The notes beneath the pieces are model-generated. The model did no database searches, had not been told where the DNA came from, and saw nothing but the letters and a program-made list of their open reading frames with translations. Both the position numbers and the translations under genes were made by a program. Positions 34,848-64,000 of a stretch of 64,000 bases of DNA are shown piece by piece. The stretch spans positions 5,100 to 69,099 of the forward strand of contig CALWKO010000004.1 of NCBI GenBank assembly GCA_944381275.1. Direction: 5' to 3'. This DNA comes from an uncultured Clostridia bacterium. Lineage in GTDB: Bacteria; Bacillota; Clostridia; Christensenellales; UBA3700. How positions within the stretch are numbered: the first letter of the stretch is position 1; the number at the start of each line of letters is the position of its first letter.

Positions 34848-37800
34848 TTATATCTCTACGCTTCCCTCGAATACCTTTACCGCGTTGCCGGTCATATATA
34901 CGGCGTCGTCGGTGTAGTTTACGGTGAGGTCGCCGCCCAGCAGGCGCACGGTGATGTCCTCGCCCTTCTTGCAATAGCCGTTGAGGCAAGCCGCCACCGC
35001 CGTGGCGCAGGCGCCCGTGCCGCAGGCGAAAGTTTCGCCGCTGCCGCGCTCCCACACGCGCATTTTAAGGGTGTGTTCGTCCAGCACCTTTACGAATTCC
35101 ACGTTCACTCCCTCGGGGAAGAGTTCGCTCTCTTCAAAGGCGGGGCCAATTTTGGCTATATCCAGGTTGTCCACGGCGGGCAGGAAGACCACGCAGTGGG
35201 GGTTGCCCATGGAAACGCACGTGACGTTGTAGTCCTTGCCGTCCACGCTCACGGTGCGGTCGATCACGCTCTCTCCGCTAAGATTGACGGGCACGGACGC
35301 GGGCGCGAGCTCCGCCTTGCCCATATCCACGCGCACTTGAATGACTTCGCCCGCGCGGGTTATCACCTTTACGTTCTTTATGCCGGAGAGCGTTTCTATC
35401 GTGAATTCCTTCTTGTTCACCACATGGGTGTCGTAGATGTACTTTGCCACGCAGCGAATACCGTTGCCGCACATCTTGCCCTCGGAGCCGTCCAGGTTGA
35501 ACATGCGCATCTTGGCGTCTGCTACCTTGGAATCGCAGATGAGGATGACGCCGTCGCCGCCTATGCCGAAGTGCCTGTCCGAAAGCCTGACCGCGAGTCC
35601 TTCCGGATTGTCGAGGTCGTTGCCGTTCATGCAGTCGAAGTAGATGTAGTCGTTGCCGCAGCCTTCCATCTTCACAAAGTTCCTCTTCACCTTGCCCGTG
35701 CGCAGTTTGTTGATGTCCACAAGCTCGGTGTTGTATTCGGAATAGCGGCTCATAAGGCTGTTCACCACCGCCTCTGCGGTATCGATGGAGGTGAGGCAGG
35801 GGATGGCACGCTCTATCGCCTTGCGGCGTATCTTCACGCTGTCACGCGTGGGCAGCTTGCCCTTGGCGGAAGTGGAGATGATGTAATTCACCTTGCCGCT
35901 TTCGATGAGCGTCAAGTTGTTGTCGAACTGGTTTTGGTGTATTTTCGCCACGACGTGCACGTCGATTCCCGCCTTTTTGAGCACGTTTGCGGTGCCCTCG
36001 GTGGCGTAGATGGTGTAGCCGAGGTCGTCGAACTTCTGCGCTATTTCGCCTATTTCACCCTTGTCCTGGTCGCGGACGGTGATGAACACGCCGCCCTTCT
36101 TGCGCATCTTGTAGCCCGCCGCCACAAGACCCTTGAAGAGCGCTTCTTCCAGGGTGGAGGCGATGCCGAGCACTTCGCCGGTGGACTTCATCTCCGGTCC
36201 CAGCTGGGTATCCACGTTGCTCAGCTTTTCAAAGCTGAACACGGGCACCTTGACCGCCACATAGGGGGAGTTGCGGTAAAGCCCCGTCCCAAAGCCCATA
36301 TCCTTGAGCTTTTCGCCCAAGATGGCGCGGGTGGCAAGGTCCACCATGGGTATGCCCGTAACCTTGCTGATGTAGGGCACGGTGCGGGAAGAGCGGGGAT
36401 TGACCTCGATGACGTAGAGCTCGCCGTGATAGATGAGGTACTGTATATTCACAAGTCCTATCGTGTGCAAGGAGAGCGCCAGTCTGCGCGAGCAGTCCAC
36501 TATCCTATCTATCATCTCGTCGCTTATGTTCCAGGAAGGATATACGGCTATCGAGTCGCCCGAGTGGATGCCCGTCCTTTCTATGTGTTCCATAACGCCG
36601 GGGATGAGGATGTCCTCTCCGTCGCAGATGGCGTCCACTTCTATCTCCGTACCCATGAGGTACTTATCCACGAGCACGGGGTTTTCTATCTTCTGCGCCA
36701 AGATGACGTCCATGTATTGCGAAACGTCCGCTTCGGAATAGCATATCTCCATGTTCTGCCCGCCCAGCACGTACGAGGGGCGCAGCAGTGCGGGATAGCC
36801 TATCTCGCCCGCCACCTTGATGGCTTCTTCCTTGGTCATGACGGTGTAGCCGCGGGGGCGCTTGATCTCCAGCTCTTCCAGCAGCTCGTCGAAGCGTTCC
36901 CTGTCCTCCGCCATGTCGATGTACTCCGCCTGGGTGCCGAGTATGGGGATGTTCTTCTTGCGCAGCATCTTGGTCAGCTTGATAGCCGTTTGACCGCCGA
37001 ATGCCACCACCACGCCGTCCGGCTTTTCCGTGTTGATTATCGAGAGCACGTCCTCGTTTGAGAGGGGCTCAAAGTAAAGCCTGTCGGCGGTGTCGAAGTC
37101 GGTGGAGACGGTTTCCGGGTTGTTGTTCACGATGACCACTTCATATCCCTTGGCTTTGAGCGCCCACACGCAGTGCACGGAGGCGTAGTCGAATTCTATG
37201 CCCTGACCTATCCTGATGGGTCCGGAACCGAAGACTATCACCTTCTTTTTCTTGCTCTTCAAGTTGTCGATGAACTCGCGCGCTTCGTTCTCGTCGTCGT
37301 AGGTGGAGTAGAAGTAGGGCGTTTGCGCGGCGAATTCCGCGGCGCAGGTGTCCACCATCTTATAGGAAGCGTACCTGGGATGTTCCACCTTCTGCCCGCT
37401 TATGTTCTCGATGGTGGAATCGAGGTAGCCCATCTTCTTGGCGCGCAGGTAGAGCTCGTCGGTGAGCTTGCTTGACTTGAGCTCCCTGTCCATCTCCACC
37501 AGCTTTTTCAGCTTGGCGATGAACCAGGGGTCTATCTTGGTTATCATGTTGATCGCGGAGATCTCCACTCCCCTCTTGAGCGCTTCGTAGATGACGAAGA
37601 TGCGCTCGTCGTCGCAGTCGTGCAGTTTGTCCCACACCTGCGAATCCGTCCAGGAAGCGTACTTTTTGTCCGTAAGGCAGTCCTTTGAAATCTCCGCGCC
37701 GCGCACCGCCTTCATGATGGCTTGTTCGAAGGTGGTGCCTATCGCCATCACCTCGCCCGTGGCTTTCATCTGCGTGCCCAGCTTGCGGTTTGCGTAGTAG

Positions 37801-38894
37801 AATTTGTCGAACGGCCACTTGGGGAACTTGACCACCACATAGTCGATGGCGGGCTCGAAGCAGGCGTACGTCTTGCCCGTGACCTTGTTCAAGATTTCGT
37901 CCAGAGTATAGCCGATTGCTATCTTGGTAGCCACCTTAGCAATGGGATATCCCGTAGCCTTACTTGCCAACGCGGAAGAGCGGCTCACGCGGGGATTGAC
38001 CTCGATGACCGCGTATTCAAAGGAGTCGGGCTTGAGCGCGAACTGCACGTTGCACCCGCCGTTCACCTTCAATTTATCCACTATCCTCAGCGCGGAGGAA
38101 CGCAGCATTTGATATTCCTTGTCCGCAAGCGTGACCGCGGGGGCGATGACTATACTGTCGCCCGTGTGCACGCCGACGGGGTCGAAGTTTTCCATGGAGC
38201 AGATGGTGATCACGTTGCCCTTGGAATCGCGCATCACCTCGAACTCTATCTCCTTCCAGCCGCTTATGCACTTTTCCACCAGAATTTGATGTATGGGGGA
38301 AACGCGCAAGCCGCCGGAGGCAATCTCGATGAACTGCGCTTCGTCTTCCGCAATGCCGCCGCCGCTGCCGCCCAGGGTGAAGGCGGGGCGCACGATAACG
38401 GGGTAGCCTATCCGCCTTGCCACGGCGATTGCCGTGTCGATATCCTCGGCGATGTCGGAGGGGATGACGGGCTCGTTTATCTCCGCGAGCGTTTCCTTAA
38501 AGCGTTCCCTGTCCTCCGCCCTGTCGATCGTTTCGGGGTCGGCGCCAAGCAGGGTGACGTTCATCTTGTCCAAAAATCCTTCCTTGGCAAGCTGCATCGA
38601 AAGGGTAAGACCCGTCTGCCCGCCCAGCGTGGAAAGAAGGCTGTCCGGCCGTTCTTTTTCTATTATCCTCTTTACGGTGGTGAGGGTGAGCGGTTCGATG
38701 TATATCCTGTCCGCCACCGCGTTATCCGTCATTATCGTAGCGGGGTTGGAGTTGACGAGCACCACTTCCAGCCCGTCTTCTTTCAGCGCGCGGCAAGCCT
38801 GAGTGCCCGCGTAGTCGAATTCCGCTGCCTGACCTATTACGATAGGACCGGAGCCTATCACCATTACTTTGTGCAAATTCTTATTGAGCGGCAT
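34848..38894 (-). CDS. carB: carbamoyl-phosphate synthase large subunit fused in frame to diaminopimelate epimerase (CarB-DapF)
   Basis: Residues 1-1068 are full-length CarB, with two ATP-grasp halves and an MGS-like domain. Residues 1069-1348 (VKRNFVKMEGCGNDYIYFD...MCGNGIRC...ACGTGACA) carry DapF signatures, including both catalytic Cys motifs. There is no stop codon at the junction (about nt 35690). Confidence 0.9.
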   Translation of the reverse strand: MPLNKNLHKVMVIGSGPIVIGQAAEFDYAGTQACRALKEDGLEVVLVNSNPATIMTDNAVADRIYIEPLTLTTVKRIIEKERPDSLLSTLGGQTGLTLSMQLAKEGFLDKMNVTLLGADPETIDRAEDRERFKETLAEINEPVIPSDIAEDIDTAIAVARRIGYPVIVRPAFTLGGSGGGIAEDEAQFIEIASGGLRVSPIHQILVEKCISGWKEIEFEVMRDSKGNVITICSMENFDPVGVHTGDSIVIAPAVTLADKEYQMLRSSALRIVDKLKVNGGCNVQFALKPDSFEYAVIEVNPRVSRSSALASKATGYPIAKVATKIAIGYTLDEILNKVTGKTYACFEPAIDYVVVKFPKWPFDKFYYANRKLGTQMKATGEVMAIGTTFEQAIMKAVRGAEISKDCLTDKKYASWTDSQVWDKLHDCDDERIFVIYEALKRGVEISAINMITKIDPWFIAKLKKLVEMDRELKSSKLTDELYLRAKKMGYLDSTIENISGQKVEHPRYASYKMVDTCAAEFAAQTPYFYSTYDDENEAREFIDNLKSKKKKVIVFGSGPIRIGQGIEFDYASVHCVWALKAKGYEVVIVNNNPETVSTDFDTADRLYFEPLSNEDVLSIINTEKPDGVVVAFGGQTAIKLTKMLRKKNIPILGTQAEYIDMAEDRERFDELLEELEIKRPRGYTVMTKEEAIKVAGEIGYPALLRPSYVLGGQNMEICYSEADVSQYMDVILAQKIENPVLVDKYLMGTEIEVDAICDGEDILIPGVMEHIERTGIHSGDSIAVYPSWNISDEMIDRIVDCSRRLALSLHTIGLVNIQYLIYHGELYVIEVNPRSSRTVPYISKVTGIPMVDLATRAILGEKLKDMGFGTGLYRNSPYVAVKVPVFSFEKLSNVDTQLGPEMKSTGEVLGIASTLEEALFKGLVAAGYKMRKKGGVFITVRDQDKGEIGEIAQKFDDLGYTIYATEGTANVLKKAGIDVHVVAKIHQNQFDNNLTLIESGKVNYIISTSAKGKLPTRDSVKIRRKAIERAIPCLTSIDTAEAVVNSLMSRYSEYNTELVDINKLRTGKVKRNFVKMEGCGNDYIYFDCMNGNDLDNPEGLAVRLSDRHFGIGGDGVILICDSKVADAKMRMFNLDGSEGKMCGNGIRCVAKYIYDTHVVNKKEFTIETLSGIKNVKVITRAGEVIQVRVDMGKAELAPASVPVNLSGESVIDRTVSVDGKDYNVTCVSMGNPHCVVFLPAVDNLDIAKIGPAFEESELFPEGVNVEFVKVLDEHTLKMRVWERGSGETFACGTGACATAVAACLNGYCKKGEDITVRLLGGDLTVNYTDDAVYMTGNAVKVFEGSVEI

Positions 38895-40465: not shown

Positions 40466-42559
<2,094 letters not shown>

Positions 42560-42560
42560 G

Positions 42561-42891
42561 AATATGATTTTTATGGGGCGCAAAGTAATTGTTTGCGCAG
42601 CGTTAGCGCCCCATAAAAATCGTGATATTTTTTACCTTCATATACAATAATTTAATACGCCGCTTTTATCAGAAGGTAAAAAGTGATATTTTTTGGCAGA
42701 TAGACAATTCTCCGTGAACAACTCTTCGTGTGCCAAAAAGTGATATGCGCCCTCAAACCGCGGAGCGACGAGAGGGCGCGTGATATTTTTGGAGATACTG
42801 TTTGCCGCAAGCGTCAAACGCTCTCCAAAAGTTGCGGCTCCGCAAAGCGGATTTGCAACTACTTTTTCTTATTGCGAAAGTTATCATTCTA
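42561..42891 (+). repeat. composite multi-hairpin extragenic element, copy 2 (left arm of an inverted pair)
   Basis: It starts with ATGATTTTT 5 nt after the glnN stop. Five hairpins (a-e) follow, separated by GTGATAT linkers. The tail is AAAAGTTGCGGCTCCGCAA...CTTATTGCGAAAGTTATCATTCTA. Confidence 0.85.
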
Positions 42892-43283
42892 TCATTCTTA
42901 GATTTAATAGTAAAGCAACGTTATTTATCTAAAAAAAATTCCAAATGCGCCTGCGGCACCTTAACTTACTTCGCGGAAAAGAGTTGCGGTAAGCGCTGCT
43001 ATTTAATAAGGAAAGCTGACTGCTTGGGAAGAATGCAAGCATAATAATGTTGTCCGCGAAAGCCGATTACGCTATAAATAGCACAATCGGCGTCCGGCGT
43101 TGCTCGCAACAGTACGCGCTTCAAATAGTTGCGCTTGCCCTGCTTTGCCGAGTATCGATAGTTTATATGCGGAAAGATTAGTGACGTATCGGGTATCGTT
43201 TCTATATCTGTCGCCGCGCAAAGAGATTTGCGGGCAAATCTCCACGCGCCCTTATATCTCCCCAAACAAATAGTTTATTGTGC

Positions 43284-43602
43284 TAGAATGATAACTTTCG
43301 CAATAAGACCAACCAAGTGTAAATGCGCCTGCGGCACCTTAACTTTTGGACAGCGCCGCTTGCGGCTGTATGTCCAAAAATATCACGCGCCCTCTCGTCG
43401 CCTTGGCGGTTTGAGGGCGCATTTCACTTTTTGGCACACGAAGAGTTGTTCACGGAGAATTGTTTATCTGCCAAAAAATATCACTTTTTACCTTCTGACA
43501 AAAGCGGCGTATTAAATTATTGTATATGAAGGTAAAAAATATCACGATTTTTATGGGGCGCTAACGCTCGCAAATATTCTTTTTGCGCCCCATAAAAATC
43601 AT
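43284..43602 (-). repeat. composite multi-hairpin extragenic element, copy 3 (right arm, inverted)
   Basis: It is the reverse complement of the same module order. Its ATGATTTTT contains the TGA stop (43599-43601) of the 291-aa gene. Confidence 0.85.
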
Positions 43603-60154: not shown

Positions 60155-61729
60155 ATGCTGAATGTAATACCGTATCCCAATAAAGTGCGCGTGCGCGAAG
60201 GCGAGCTGGAGATGAAGGGCACGATAACCGTGCGTTGCCCCGAACGCTACTCCGTTATAGCGGAAAAGTTCACGGCGGATCTGCACAAAAGTCTGCCCTC
60301 TTTGCACGTGGAAGACGAAGGGAACATATTGATAGACTTTAATCTCGTTGCCGATTACGGGCAGGAGGAGTACTCGCTGGACATCTCCGGCAAGGGGATA
60401 GACATACGCGCTTCAAAGGCGTCCGGCTTCATCTACGCCTGCCAAACGCTCTACCAAATGCTCGAGCTGCACAAGTTCCACGGAGCGAGCGTAAAGATCC
60501 CCTATTGTTACATCTCCGACAAACCGCGCTTCCGCTGGCGCGGCATGCTCCTGGACGAAGCGCGCCACTTCTTCGGCAAGCAGGAAGTGCTGCGGCTTTT
60601 GGAGATAATGGCGATGCACAAGCTCAACGCGCTGTGCTGGCATCTGGCGGACGACCAAGGCTGGAGGATAGAGAGCAAGCGCTACCCCCTCCTCCACGAG
60701 ATAGGCTCCCGCCGTTCGGATACGCAGATAGGCGGCACCCGTTCGGAAAAGTTCTGCGGGCAGGGACACGAAGGCTTCTACACACAAGAAGATATACGCG
60801 AGATAGTGGAAAAAGCCCACTCCATGAGCATACTTGTCATGCCGGAGATCTCCATGCCCACGCACGTGGGGGCGATGGCGGCGGCTTATCCGCAGATAAC
60901 CTGCTCGGATAAGTGCATGCCCGTGGCTACATCTTTCGGCGACCGCGGCACCCTTCTTTGCGCGAGCAGCAGCGAAACGCGCGAATTTATCCGCGGCGTG
61001 CTGGACGAGATATGCGAGCTTTTCCCCTCCCCCTACATCTCGCTCAGGGCGGCGAATCTGCACGCGGAAAAATGGCTCTCCTGCGAGGGGTGCCGCAAAT
61101 ATATGCAAGAGCACTTTATGCACGACCCCAAGCAGCTGCAGGCGGCGTTTTTGAACGACATCTCCGAATACTTAAAGAAGAAGGGGCGGCGCATGCTGTG
61201 TGAAAACACCGCGATGGCGGACGGCATGGACCGCGACATAATAGGCATCTACTCCACCGGGGAAAGGGACAAGACCCTGCCCGATCAGCTGCGCTGGGGC
61301 AGGAGCTACATCATCTCAAAGCCCAACTATTTGGACTTCGATCTCCCCTACTGCACGCTGCCGCTGACCAAGACGTACTCCTTCGATCCGGACAAGGAGC
61401 TGAAGGGCTGCCGCTTCCTTCACGGCAAGGTGATGGGCATGCAGGCGAACTTGTGGACGGAGTGGATATACGACAGAGAAAAGCTGGATATGTGCCTGTT
61501 CCCGCGCATGGCGGCGCTGGCGGAGGCGGCGTGGACGGAGCCGAGCGAAAAGAGCAAGTCGAGCTTTATAAAGCGCCTCACCCCCTACCGCGAACTGCTG
61601 GACGGCAGCGACATAAACTACGCCAAGGACAAAATTTGCATGCCGCGCAACCCCATTTCGCGGTTTAGAAAAAGATACTACTACAACTTAATGGACCAAT
61701 ACTTAGAGGTCCGGGAGAACAGAAAATGA
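60155..61729 (+). CDS. GH20 beta-N-acetylhexosaminidase homolog lacking the catalytic Asp-Glu pair
   Basis: The GH20 core motifs RWRGMLLDEARHFF, CWHLADDQGWRIE and ANLWTEW are present. The HxGGDE position reads SLRAAN (61037-61057) and EIDxPGH reads EISMPTH. Confidence 0.82.
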   Translation: MLNVIPYPNKVRVREGELEMKGTITVRCPERYSVIAEKFTADLHKSLPSLHVEDEGNILIDFNLVADYGQEEYSLDISGKGIDIRASKASGFIYACQTLYQMLELHKFHGASVKIPYCYISDKPRFRWRGMLLDEARHFFGKQEVLRLLEIMAMHKLNALCWHLADDQGWRIESKRYPLLHEIGSRRSDTQIGGTRSEKFCGQGHEGFYTQEDIREIVEKAHSMSILVMPEISMPTHVGAMAAAYPQITCSDKCMPVATSFGDRGTLLCASSSETREFIRGVLDEICELFPSPYISLRAANLHAEKWLSCEGCRKYMQEHFMHDPKQLQAAFLNDISEYLKKKGRRMLCENTAMADGMDRDIIGIYSTGERDKTLPDQLRWGRSYIISKPNYLDFDLPYCTLPLTKTYSFDPDKELKGCRFLHGKVMGMQANLWTEWIYDREKLDMCLFPRMAALAEAAWTEPSEKSKSSFIKRLTPYRELLDGSDINYAKDKICMPRNPISRFRKRYYYNLMDQYLEVRENRK

Positions 61730-62865
61730 AAAAAACTCTGGTAAACGTCCGCCCTTTTTCCGAGGGCAAAATAAAACCCATGTGCAGCATAGTCATCGAG
61801 GACGGCAAGATCTCCTCTATGGGCAACATGATAGCCGGCGACGTGATAGACGGCGGCGGCATGATCGCCTGCGCCGGATATATCGACATCCACACCCACG
61901 GCGGCTGGGGCAAGGACTGCATGGAGCCCACCTACGAGGCGATAGACACCGTGGCAAGATATCACCTGTCCACGGGCATAACCTCCTTCTGCCCCACCAC
62001 CATGACGGCGGATATAGCGGACATAGAAGCCGCCCTTGCCAACATGCGCTCTTATAAGACGAACGGCGCGCGCCTTGCCGGGGCGCACCTGGAAGGACCC
62101 TTCCTCTCTTCTAAGGCGGCGGGAGCGCACCCCCTGGACAAGCTGCAAAATCCCGACAAGAACAACACCGCCTTCATCACCCGCAACCGCGACATGGTCC
62201 GCCGCATAACCGTGGCTCCCGACCTTCCCGGCGCGCCCTTCGTGACCGCGCTGTGCGCGAGCATGGGCATTCAGGTTTCGATAGGCCACGACGGCAGCAT
62301 AGACGACGAGATCCTCGCCTGCATAGAAGCGGGCGCAAGCAGCGTTACGCATATGGGCAACTGCACTTCGCACGCTTCACGCCGTTACCCCTCCCCCAAA
62401 AAACACCTGGGACTTTTTGAAATGGGCCTTGCCGACGACCGCCTGGTTTGCGAAGTCATCGCCGACGACCGCCACGTCCCCGACGCGCTCTTTAAAATCT
62501 TCTACCGCTTGAAGGGCAAGGACGGCATATGCTTTGTCTCCGACTCCCTCTCCGTTGCCGGTATGAGCGAGGGCGACTACTTCCTGGGCAGCGGCGAAAG
62601 CGCGCAAGCCATCCGCATAGAAGACGGCGTGGCGGTGCTCCCCGATAAGCACACCTATGCCGGCTCCGTGACCCCTATATCCAAGATGGTGTCCCGCCTG
62701 TACGCGCAGGGCTACCCCGCGGAAGACGTGCTCACCATGGCTACCCTCACCCCCGCAAGGCTCGTAAACCTCACCGACCGCGGCGACCTCCGCCCCGGAC
62801 TTTTGGCGGACATCAATTTGCTGAATGACAAGCTGGAAGTGGTGAGGACGATGATGGGGGAATGA
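61726..62865 (+). CDS. nagA: N-acetylglucosamine-6-phosphate deacetylase
   Basis: It has GYIDIHTHGG, GAHLEGPF and the HDGS.../SVTHMGN region. An ATGA overlap links it to the upstream gene. Confidence 0.9.
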   Translation: MKKTLVNVRPFSEGKIKPMCSIVIEDGKISSMGNMIAGDVIDGGGMIACAGYIDIHTHGGWGKDCMEPTYEAIDTVARYHLSTGITSFCPTTMTADIADIEAALANMRSYKTNGARLAGAHLEGPFLSSKAAGAHPLDKLQNPDKNNTAFITRNRDMVRRITVAPDLPGAPFVTALCASMGIQVSIGHDGSIDDEILACIEAGASSVTHMGNCTSHASRRYPSPKKHLGLFEMGLADDRLVCEVIADDRHVPDALFKIFYRLKGKDGICFVSDSLSVAGMSEGDYFLGSGESAQAIRIEDGVAVLPDKHTYAGSVTPISKMVSRLYAQGYPAEDVLTMATLTPARLVNLTDRGDLRPGLLADINLLNDKLEVVRTMMGE

Positions 62866-63180
62866 TTTTTGAGGGACGCAATTGTCTAATTGCGAGCGTT
62901 AGCGTCCCCCAAAAATCGTGATATTTTTCGGAAGATAAAGGTTATGAATTAAGCGAAAGTTGCGTTTCTTCCGAAAAGTGATATTTTTGGCTAGCGAAAT
63001 AATAAAGCCTTGATGTGACCGTGAGGGAACACAAGGCTTTTTCTCTTCGCAGAAGCTATTCACACGCCAAAAGTGATATGCGCCCTCAAACCGCAGAGCG
63101 ACGAGAGGGCGCGTGATATTTTTGCGCGTACTGTTGCGAGCAACGCCGCGCAAAAGTTGCGGCTCCGCAAGCGCATTAGA
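62862..63180 (+). repeat. composite multi-hairpin extragenic element, copy 4 (GTGATAT linkers)
   Basis: Its ATGATTTTT contains the nagA TGA stop (62863-62865). Hairpins a-e are in the same order as in copy 2. Confidence 0.85.
63006..63047 (+). terminator. intrinsic terminator inside element module c (downstream of nagA)
   Basis: Stem AGCCTTG/CAAGGCT followed by TTTTTCTCTT. It is near-identical to the module at 454-532. Confidence 0.6.
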
Positions 63181-63468
63181 ATATGATTTTTTCAGGGCAC
63201 TATTATTGGAAACACAAACACAAGCGCCCTGAAAAAATCGCGAAATCTTTTCGGGGATATAGTTTATTCATAATCAACACTATTCTTTCCCCGAAAAGGC
63301 GAAATCCATTCTCATTCGAGAATGGACGAAATCCGCCCTCAAACCGCAGAGCGACGAGAGGGCGGGCGAAATCCTTGCGCGTACAGTTGCGAGCAACGCC
63401 GCGCAAGGGCGAAGGTGCCACAGGCGCATTTACACTTGTTTTGTCTTATTGCGAAAGTATTCTTTCTA
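63181..63468 (+). repeat. composite multi-hairpin extragenic element, copy 5 (GCGAAAT linkers)
   Basis: It starts ATATGATTTTTT and keeps the a-e module order. Modules d and e are nearly identical to copy 4, but every linker reads GCGAAAT(C) instead of GTGATAT. The tail is GAAGGTGCCACAGGCGCATTTACACTTG...CTTATTGCGAAAGTATTC. Confidence 0.85.
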
Positions 63469-63534
63469 CCCCGTAAGATTACGAAGAAAACAGCTTGCGC
63501 TTTAATGTTAAAAGTAATTGCGAAGATATAAAGA

Positions 63535-63725
63535 AGTGCAATAAAGCGCGGCAAATGCCAAGCGTTACCATTAGAGAGGCTTGCCCTCTCGCGGAGCCGT
63601 GCGTGAGCAAGGCGGAGCTTGCGCAAGTGCGAAGAAATAAGGTTACACTTTAATTAAAAACTGCTGCAAAGTGATAAAGTAGTGCAATAAAGCGCGGCAA
63701 AATCGCACTTTTGCCAAGCGTTACC
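63535..63725 (+). repeat. direct repeat pair in a non-coding tail
   Basis: AGTGCAATAAAGCGCGGCAAA..GCCAAGCGTTACC occurs at 63535-63569 and 63681-63725. The second copy carries a ~10-nt insertion. Confidence 0.8.
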
Positions 63726-64000
63726 TTGAGCGGTGCGACTGCGCCGCGCCCAAGTGCCGACTTGCGGCACGATTGGACGGAAAGGGTGAATTTTTGCGGC
63801 TAAGGTTTGCGCGCTACGAGATTCAGTGTGCCGCAAAAAGAGGGGAAAACCGCGGCTCAAGCAAGCAATCTTGCGGAGCAACGGAGTGGCACCGCAACGT
63901 GATTAAGCTGCTTCATCGAGTAGTGTTGCTTGCGAATGGTGGGGTGTCCCCTCAGGCAAGCGGAAAAGGAAAAAGCAACTTACGAAGTAAACGAAAAAAC

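Follow-up and report, generated by a model that had tools for sequence, protein, structure and literature searches.

Modular hairpin arrays related to the Gut-1 motif between convergent genes of an uncultured Clostridia bacterium

We analysed a 64-kb stretch of DNA from an uncultured Clostridia bacterium (hereafter the window, meaning the whole 64,000 nt), in which two elements of about 335 nt face each other at 42561-43602, between glnN and a gene for a 291-aa protein. With a probability of roughly 0.55, these two arms are copies of a modular extragenic repeat resembling the REP/BIME (repetitive extragenic palindromic and bacterial interspersed mosaic) or BOX elements, with one copy at the 3′ end of each of two convergent genes. 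The pair is inverted because glnN and the 291-aa gene converge and each copy points along its own gene. In this repeat, five hairpins and a fixed linker, G[T/C]GA[T/A]AT, make up a closed array; the compact form of the repeat, present in genomes of other gut Clostridia, is the Gut-1 motif of Rfam. The form found in the window is lineage-specific, with loops of 17-74 nt in place of short ones and with a head and a tail added.

Anatomy of the inverted pair

A BLAST search of the left copy against the window places the arms at 42561-42895 on the plus strand and at 43281-43602 on the minus strand, with 88.3% identity over 332 nt, and a repeat finder reports a 163-nt stretch over hairpins b to d (42599-42761 and 43406-43568) that is 98% complementary. 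When read directly, with the help of a listing of perfect stems, each arm resolves into five hairpins (a to e) with GTGATAT as the joint between them, which bears out the original prediction, made from the sequence alone, of two opposed copies built in this way. The pair is a real feature and not an artefact, its pattern lying far beyond chance: GTGATAT occurs 20 times in the window against 3.8 expected (0 of 100 shuffles reach 20), the 14-mer around the linker, AAAGTGATATTTTT, occurs seven times with at most two mismatches against 0.48 expected, and the folding z-scores relative to shuffled sequence are -8.1, -7.5 and -11.7, those of the two arms being -7.5 to -8.1.

The left copy, on the plus strand throughout, opens with the head ATGATTTTT (42564-42572), which represents a first, degenerate linker together with the T run of hairpin a and begins at the fifth base 3′ of the glnN stop codon TAA (42557-42559). 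Hairpin a (42566-42621) has a perfect 16-bp stem, GATTTTTATGGGGCGC / GCGCCCCATAAAAATC, and a 24-nt loop. It is followed by the array core (42622-42786), where GTGATAT linkers at 42622, 42683, 42740 and 42780 are arranged around hairpins b (42629-42682, 11-bp stem), c (42690-42739, 9-bp stem) and d (42747-42779, 8-bp stem), the last of these with a conserved loop of 17 nt. Hairpin e (42787-42830, 9-bp stem TTTTGGAGA / TCTCCAAAA), a terminal pseudo-linker GTTGCGG at 42831 with a short hairpin (42831-42859) and a conserved 24-nt tail, CTTATTGCGAAAGTTATCATTCTA (42868-42891), complete the copy. The end of the tail, ATCATTCT, is pairable with AGAAT..GAT of the head in the predicted fold, the complementarity between head and tail being weak.

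The right copy (43284-43602) mirrors this layout on the minus strand. Its head (43594-43602) encloses the TGA (43599-43601) of the 291-aa open reading frame (ORF), so that both arms abut convergent stop codons, as had been proposed. Hairpins a to e occupy 43546-43600, 43485-43538, 43428-43477, 43387-43420 and 43344-43379, respectively; the linkers lie at 43539, 43478, 43421 (here GTGAAAT) and 43380, and GTTAAGG (43337-43343) and the tail (43284-43307) follow.

Every stem in the window copies is perfectly Watson-Crick paired and carries a T run on its 5′ side and an A run on its 3′ side. The arms are therefore not intrinsic terminators, a point on which the original prediction was right, and a terminator scan was negative in both of them. 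Its statement that loops differ between the arms while stems are kept applies to hairpin a, whose loop differs, and to hairpin e, where a G-C pair is replaced by C-G in a compensated change, but not to hairpins b to d, which are near-identical in their loops as well. Likewise, the 392-bp core between the arms (42892-43283) indeed contains no supported ORF, yet it is not neutral filler and holds the debris of further copies: the loop of a hairpin e at 43095-43119, a 3′ remnant of hairpin d fused to a GTGGAGATTTGCC module (around 43200-43250, minus strand), and a 25-nt repeat shared by the core and the right arm (42943-42967, identical to 43321-43345).

Further copies in the window

Where two copies had been noticed, the window holds five, the three additional ones, all on the plus strand, having been located by a BLAST search with the element and then read directly. 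A short copy (387-590) lies directly 3′ of the stop codon of the ORF at 56-382 and consists of the head (387-395), hairpin a (391-442), one GTGATAT (443-449), a hairpin c′ (450-536) and the end module GTGGAAATTTGCC. A full copy (62862-63178) has hairpins a to e, including a c′ at 62985-63072 with an embedded terminator-like hairpin, and GTGATAT linkers at 62918, 62978, 63073 and 63113; its head (62862-62870) contains the TGA of a nagA-like ORF (61726-62865). A tandem copy follows at 63183-63468 (head 63183-63191, tail 63445-63468) with unchanged module order. GCGAAAT or ACGAAAT stands at all four of its linker positions (63240, 63299, 63326 and 63366), and in hairpins b to e C-G has replaced T-A as the outermost pair, while the loops of its hairpins d and e are as in the remaining copies.

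The head of the left arm thus recurs at 387-395, 62862-62870 and 63183-63191 and, reversed, at 43594-43602, and four heads touch or contain the stop codon (as ATGA) of a co-oriented gene. The module order is common to all five copies. Each of the five is co-oriented with the gene that it follows, and no terminator precedes any of them, so they should be transcribed as parts of 3′ untranslated regions (UTRs).

A terminator-like hairpin, AAAGCCTTG...CAAGGCTTTTTCTCTT, sits in the c′ loop of two copies (469-504 and 63004-63040) and is the only hairpin within the copies that has the form of an intrinsic terminator. Loops appear to accept extra modules. After the tandem copies comes a long non-coding stretch (63480-64000), where GTGCAATAAAGCGCGGCAAA...CCAAGCGTTACC occurs twice (around 63537 and 63682) and a further hairpin with T and A runs lies at 63791-63839.

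Relationship to the Rfam family Gut-1

Relatives were searched for in one genome per species with the pattern GTGATATTTTT-N30-60-AAAGTGATAT, which returned at least 84 loci, and were compared as 8-kb loci, the source genome being represented by its single 64-kb window. Arrays are present in about 35 of the 84 listed loci, all from metagenome-assembled genomes (MAGs) of gut Clostridia, and the proposal that the arms belong to an element family is borne out by these relatives together with the five window copies. The hosts among the listed loci are Christensenellales and Christensenellaceae, Oscillospiraceae, Acutalibacteraceae and unclassified ruminant, rabbit and 'BRZ' bins, those of the compact relatives being mainly Christensenellales and Oscillospirales. 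Compact relatives usually have four linkers with perfect hairpins of 13-20 nt in between, and the linker count seldom departs from four; besides GTGATAT, the linker may read GTTATAT, GTGAGAT, GTGAAAT or GCGAAAT. An array is frequently accompanied by a facing array of four ATATCAC linkers (as in L016, L017, L044 and L058), and one locus (L007) is made of 207-bp tandem units.

The compact arrays are Gut-1 (RF01706), with 14 matches of 50.9-68.2 bits in 11 listed loci against an Rfam gathering threshold of 50 bits. At that threshold no Rfam family matches anywhere in the whole window. Below it, Gut-1 matches the left copy (42648-42791, plus strand, 20.0 bits), the right copy (43375-43519, minus strand, 20.9 bits) and the copy at 62862-63178 (62955-63124, plus strand, 18.8 bits). 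Strand and register are correct in all three matches, which pass over the long loops. The E-values of these weak matches (0.26-0.61) span 4227 families and correspond, by our own division, to about 1e-4 per copy for this one family, for whose choice there were independent grounds.

The likeness lies in the layout. The Rfam consensus reads (a)UGAAAU-hairpin-GUGAAAU-hairpin-GUGAAAU-hairpin-GUGAAAU, and the seed alignment of 2010 includes members with GUGAUAU, a terminal GUUGCGG or GUUUGAC and facing AUAUCAC arrays. The window copies similarly have four linkers of the form G[U/C]GA[A/U]AU with three hairpins within, closed by U-A, one extra hairpin on each side and a terminal GUUG..., and they share with Gut-1 the gut Clostridia as hosts; facing arrays often stand next to both. 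They differ in their hairpins of 33-88 nt with 17-74-nt loops, where those of Gut-1 measure 13-20 nt with loops of 3-5 nt, as well as in the head fused to a stop codon, the conserved 24-nt tail and the one copy with GCGAAAT. Two loci (L016 and L017) contain intermediates with one long hairpin that are physically linked to bona fide Gut-1 matches, and two others, from another 'BRZ' MAG (L071 and L072), carry the long-loop type of the window. Since the window copies score below the threshold but have the Gut-1 layout, we file them as a long-loop variant related to Gut-1 and not as curated members. By the original prediction's own standard, a match to a known Rfam family would count against it; the compact relatives give such a match above the threshold, and the window copies (19-21 against 50 bits) do not.

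Gut-1 was described from 43 members in human gut metagenomes, none in a sequenced organism; its authors considered it 'certainly' RNA and not cis-regulatory, scored it 'RNA? Y', treated it as a small-RNA gene and gave no function (Weinberg et al. 2010, PMC2864571). The dispersed-repeat appearance seen here contrasts with that small-RNA gene, and with the Rfam type 'Gene; sRNA'. In the later literature that we searched we found no mention of the motif. A family listed in Rfam since 2010 without host organism or function ('human gut only') is thus assigned to genomes of Christensenellales and Oscillospirales living in the guts of humans and animals, and it proves to be multi-copy, modular and expandable to 300-nt units fused to gene ends.

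A metagenome scan with the conserved hairpin-d pattern gave 0 matches and one with the a-b junction pattern gave chance matches, with one marginal locus among 120; with both scans nearly empty, the lineage of the window is absent from that collection. In viral contigs, real arrays account for only two of 120 matches, so the element is not phage-associated. Several other leads were discarded. Matches of hairpin a to mir-365 (E from about 1e-4 to 1e-3) reflect a long A/U-flanked hairpin set against the model of a eukaryotic microRNA, and a CRISPR-like reading founders on repeats of 7 nt and the lack of cas genes. Literature searches for GTGATAT or GUGAUAU found unrelated papers only, those for hairpin arrays and Christensenellales nothing relevant, and the TAACTGA repeats of Beggiatoaceae (PMC4679880), plain tandem heptamers upstream of start codons, are a different thing.

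Dispersal and turnover

The spacer between glnN and the 291-aa gene, 1039 bp in the window, varies among relatives with their distance from the window. At 68% protein identity it measures 430-567 bp and contains other repeat families; at 67% an EndoU toxin cassette interrupts it; at 59% its length is about 95 bp, with only ATGATTTTTGAGGGACGC...AAAAAATCAT (ATGATTTTT...AAAAATCAT) in it; and at 53% about 94 bp remain, with a plain terminator-like hairpin. The 59% relative has the head at both gene ends and no array, which indicates that both stop codons had acquired their heads before arrays came to lie between them. The differing repeats in the orthologous spacers at 66-68% protein identity (L089 5859-6425, L095 3871-4301 and L091 7780-8273) comprise AAAAGCCTTGAAGCAC...CTTCAAGGCTT hairpins and ATTCTTTTGCGAAGAACTTATTCCCGT...GGGGCGCAAC units, and the L091 spacer additionally holds an inserted EndoU-toxin cassette.

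Dispersal is seen in MAG RGIG3112, where a 435-bp composite occurs at two loci (L016 2458-2889 and L033 4920-5354) with 92% identity and unrelated flanks. The composite is made up of a structured module upstream, a terminator-like hairpin, two arrays that face each other, one of GTGATAT and one of ATATCAC linkers, and a closing hairpin. At its ends are sequences of about 20 bp that look like terminal inverted repeats (GCGTGTTATCCTTAACGGAG / CTCCGTTAAGAGTATCACGCC), with no clear duplication. Several other MAGs each contributed two or more loci. Among 28 arrays with both neighbouring genes called, by crude gene calls, 17 lie between convergent genes and one between divergent genes. The 80 nearest genes are unrelated housekeeping genes, with no family represented more than three times, and neither a transposase nor an HUH/Y1 domain was found in the window or among the recurrent neighbours of relatives.

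Three contigs from other samples that encode an identical 291-aa protein break inside the arm, an example of how such repeats disrupt metagenome assemblies. In one of them (L086) hairpins a to d are joined to a different hairpin e, and in a strain that is 99.35% identical (L085) the left-arm alleles are present at two right-arm positions, and thus in both arms. Both results point to an exchange of sequence among copies. The junction in L086 (6872-7219, compared with window 42868-42920) connects the arm beside the 291-aa gene to the tail and core flank of the glnN side; it could be due to an inversion of the core or to an assembly path through the repeat.

Two further loci are unusual. One (L079 765-2886) has at least four arrays, one of them with eight linkers, around a small gene whose product we take to be a four-helix-bundle protein of the 23S rRNA intervening-sequence type. 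In the other, arrays flank glgC-glgD (L057 224-298 and 3528-3582), and one of them reaches to within about 40 nt of the glgA start codon on its upstream side, which shows that arrays also occur elsewhere than at gene 3′ ends.

Single-strand structure and the question of strand

That the hairpin structure is conserved, as originally proposed, is supported by compensated changes in hairpins between copies and by a long-range helix in the compact composites. This 10-bp helix encloses the right-hand array; in nine sequences 90 of 90 cells are paired, two pairs are doubly changed, none of 500 shuffles reaches the score, and slid controls pair at 34-46%.

The signals regarding the strand are in conflict, with G·U pairs favouring the GUGAUAU strand and GNA/GNNA loops favouring the opposite one. 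The long-range helix includes two G·U pairs, both on one strand, and with RNA parameters the GUGAUAU strand is the more stable in all 23 arrays considered, by 5.9 kcal/mol on average. This excess is due to A-U and U·G pairs between linker ends: the last two bases of a linker (AU) pair with the first two of the next (GU), as they do in the Rfam structure. A pairing of left with right linkers as a ladder was also considered, and it appeared only occasionally in predicted folds and is hence unsupported. In 128 hairpin units, on the other hand, loops of the form G...A fall on the ATATCAC strand in 69 cases and on the opposite strand in one (GAA 21, GCA 9, GTA 7, GATA 8, GTTA 7, GTAA 5, GCAA 4), and C-G closes the loop in 101. 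GNYA loops are at least as common as GNRA, and G·T and A·C are equally frequent (5 vs 5) among the 20 mismatches inside stems. The most stable mini-hairpins of DNA have d(cGNAg) and d(cGNNAg) loops. The balance of GNYA and GNRA would seem to fit DNA mini-hairpins better than RNA tetraloops; the working molecule may be RNA or single-stranded DNA, on either strand. RNA-like linkers beside DNA-like loops, together with the joint change of all linkers in one array, are the puzzles that the family exposes.

Weighing the explanations

Several observations weigh against a simple extragenic repeat residing in 3′ UTRs. In tandem gene contexts the orientation of arrays is unbiased (four co-oriented and six opposed), and many compact relatives have the array just after an intrinsic terminator, where transcripts of the upstream gene would seldom reach it. 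Neither the window nor the relatives' loci yielded a transposase, a target-site duplication or a clean empty site. The window copies, as noted, remain below the Rfam threshold, and simple repeat decay does not account for the joint change that the tandem copy shows in all four linkers. Both the 3′-UTR role and the strand are, moreover, suppositions.

Two alternatives, neither of them probable, deserve the most attention and seem to us about equally credible. One is a stand-alone structured small RNA, transcribed from the GUGAUAU strand, folded around a multi-way junction and acting in trans or binding a protein. It agrees with the classification of Gut-1 by Rfam and by Weinberg et al., with the greater stability of that strand in 23 of 23 arrays and with the covarying long-range helix and its one-sided G·U pairs; yet a small-RNA gene would hardly be expected in several copies per genome, tandem and inverted, with no promoter or terminator framing the arrays and with content unconserved at the orthologous site, and the parity of G·T and A·C in stems and the 69 to 1 distribution of G..A loops towards the other strand, with GNYA not rarer than GNRA, argue in the opposite direction. 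The GNA and GNNA loops of the ATATCAC strand, with their closing C-G pairs, are what would be expected of the other alternative, a non-autonomous single-stranded-DNA element moved by an HUH enzyme (RAYT or the TnpA of IS200/IS605) that would recognise a hairpin together with its linker and nick the latter. An element of this kind, a PATE derived from IS200/IS605 or one of the RAYT type, was put forward by the original prediction, whose idea of insertion 3′ of a TGAT-like target that the linker recreates is a conjecture. Perfect palindromic stems almost devoid of wobble pairs and the dispersal of copies accord with such an element, and GTG/ATAT presumably resembles rolling-circle nick sites such as CTTG/ATA. 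The enzyme itself, though, has no candidate in the window or among the recurrent neighbours, none of the sequences examined showed an IS200/IS605 with TnpA or TnpB, a conserved GTAG-type motif is missing, the hairpins vary in sequence inside one array in a manner unlike REP classes or insertion-sequence ends, and facing arrays place the supposedly active strand on both strands. A bolder version, to which we give slightly less credit still, regards Gut-1-type arrays not as small-RNA genes but as self-organising elements of single-stranded DNA, in which very stable mini-hairpins stack, a 7-9-nt unit is copied or homogenised inside each array, hairpin cores pass from array to array as cassettes and a putative nicking or recombining enzyme would operate in Christensenellales and Oscillospirales.

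A stepwise build, in which palindromic cassettes insert into the linker and duplicate it in the way of a target-site duplication or a CRISPR repeat, is unlikely; it would make the linkers within an array identical while hairpin cores move between arrays. The tandem copy at 63183-63468 conforms to it, having GCGAAAT/ACGAAAT linkers and closing pairs that are all C-G around d and e cores shared with GTGATAT copies, and so do two loci with a GTGATAT array followed by a GTGAAAT array (L040 and L084) and one with hairpin d inverted within the array (L072). The usual four linkers and the conserved module order speak instead for a fixed architecture; L007 mixes linker variants at conserved positions, cassettes of 13 nt would be implausibly small, and no candidate enzyme was found. 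Least likely of all, and by our estimate very improbable, is an invertible switch, with the 330-bp arms recombining so that the 392-bp core is inverted and a promoter redirected. The junction in L086 might be read as its product, the arms are 98% identical over 163 nt, and TGnTAGAAT, resembling a -10 box, is present at the inner ends of both. But flipping so nearly symmetric an arrangement would alter little, no recombinase is encoded in the window and no invertase gene was found nearby, the L086 junction may be the work of the assembler, and the remaining three copies are single or tandem, not inverted.

Comparison with known repeats

The modular extragenic repeat, which we prefer, has counterparts in the REP/BIME elements of enterobacteria and pseudomonads. 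These, too, are arrays of extragenic palindromes with conserved short linkers that lie at gene 3′ ends and between convergent genes and vary in content among relatives; they occur in many copies, as the present family, with five in 64 kb, may do as well. As regards the REP/BIME kind suggested by the original prediction, the dispersed repeat, the convergent ends and the turnover uphold it in a broad sense, and the variable hairpins and the absence of a GTAG-like 5′ motif (5′ GT[A/G]G) do not: here the linker is constant and the palindromes vary, the reverse of BIMEs; copies within an array are direct and not alternating; and neither the window nor the recurrent neighbours yielded a RAYT. BOX of Streptococcus pneumoniae and the Correia/NEMIS and RUP-type elements are similarly composed of a start module, variable internal hairpin modules and an end module, and are strongly folded, intergenic, multi-copy and non-coding; they lack the 7-nt linker periodicity and the count of four linkers, and no sequence relation is apparent. 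The STAXI motif of the 2010 survey is likewise a run of tandem hairpins, one that its authors suspected of acting as single-stranded DNA (PMC2864571), but it differs in sequence, contains a pseudoknot and is associated with mobile-element genes, features not seen here.

Possible spread and role

If the arms are modular extragenic repeats, the family would have been copied as DNA to new intergenic sites, with arrays reshuffled module by module and neighbouring copies homogenised. Our best guess for the spread is a nicking enzyme that would act at the linker on single-stranded DNA. The repeat may persist at gene 3′ ends because insertions there do little harm, and it is perhaps useful there. The hairpins presumably form in the single strand, and a stack of five stable hairpins 0-5 nt past the stop codon might block 3′ exonucleases; if co-transcribed, it could serve as a 3′-end barrier or insulator, as REP and BOX elements do, and the arrays would then shape the 3′ ends of housekeeping mRNAs such as that of glnN. 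REPs at most about 15 nt from a stop codon affect the upstream gene and stabilise its mRNA, and by analogy with REPs near stop codons translation termination may possibly be affected as well.

Other features of the window

Outside the repeats, nine large co-directional ORFs on the minus strand (12859-34468) look like a defence island with uncharacterised parts. One encodes a 1502-aa helicase with DUF4011, AAA_11 and AAA_12 domains and a REase_MTES_1575 end (PADLOC PDC-S37, 3e-111), which also resembles Hhe and MkoA/MkoC, and another a 946-aa SNF2/ResIII helicase resembling DrmD, BrxH and DpdE; for the seven other ORFs (374-1303 aa), Pfam and PADLOC yield no family, with the exception of one MBG domain. 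A 439-aa ORF at 1199-2518 on the plus strand combines an N-terminal TIR domain with a class-I S-adenosylmethionine methyltransferase domain and has weak PADLOC matches to ThsB and SAVED-TIR. Finally, the large subunit of carbamoyl-phosphate synthase (34848-38894, minus strand, 1348 aa) is fused at its C-terminus to a diaminopimelate epimerase domain, an arrangement conserved in the relatives' loci.

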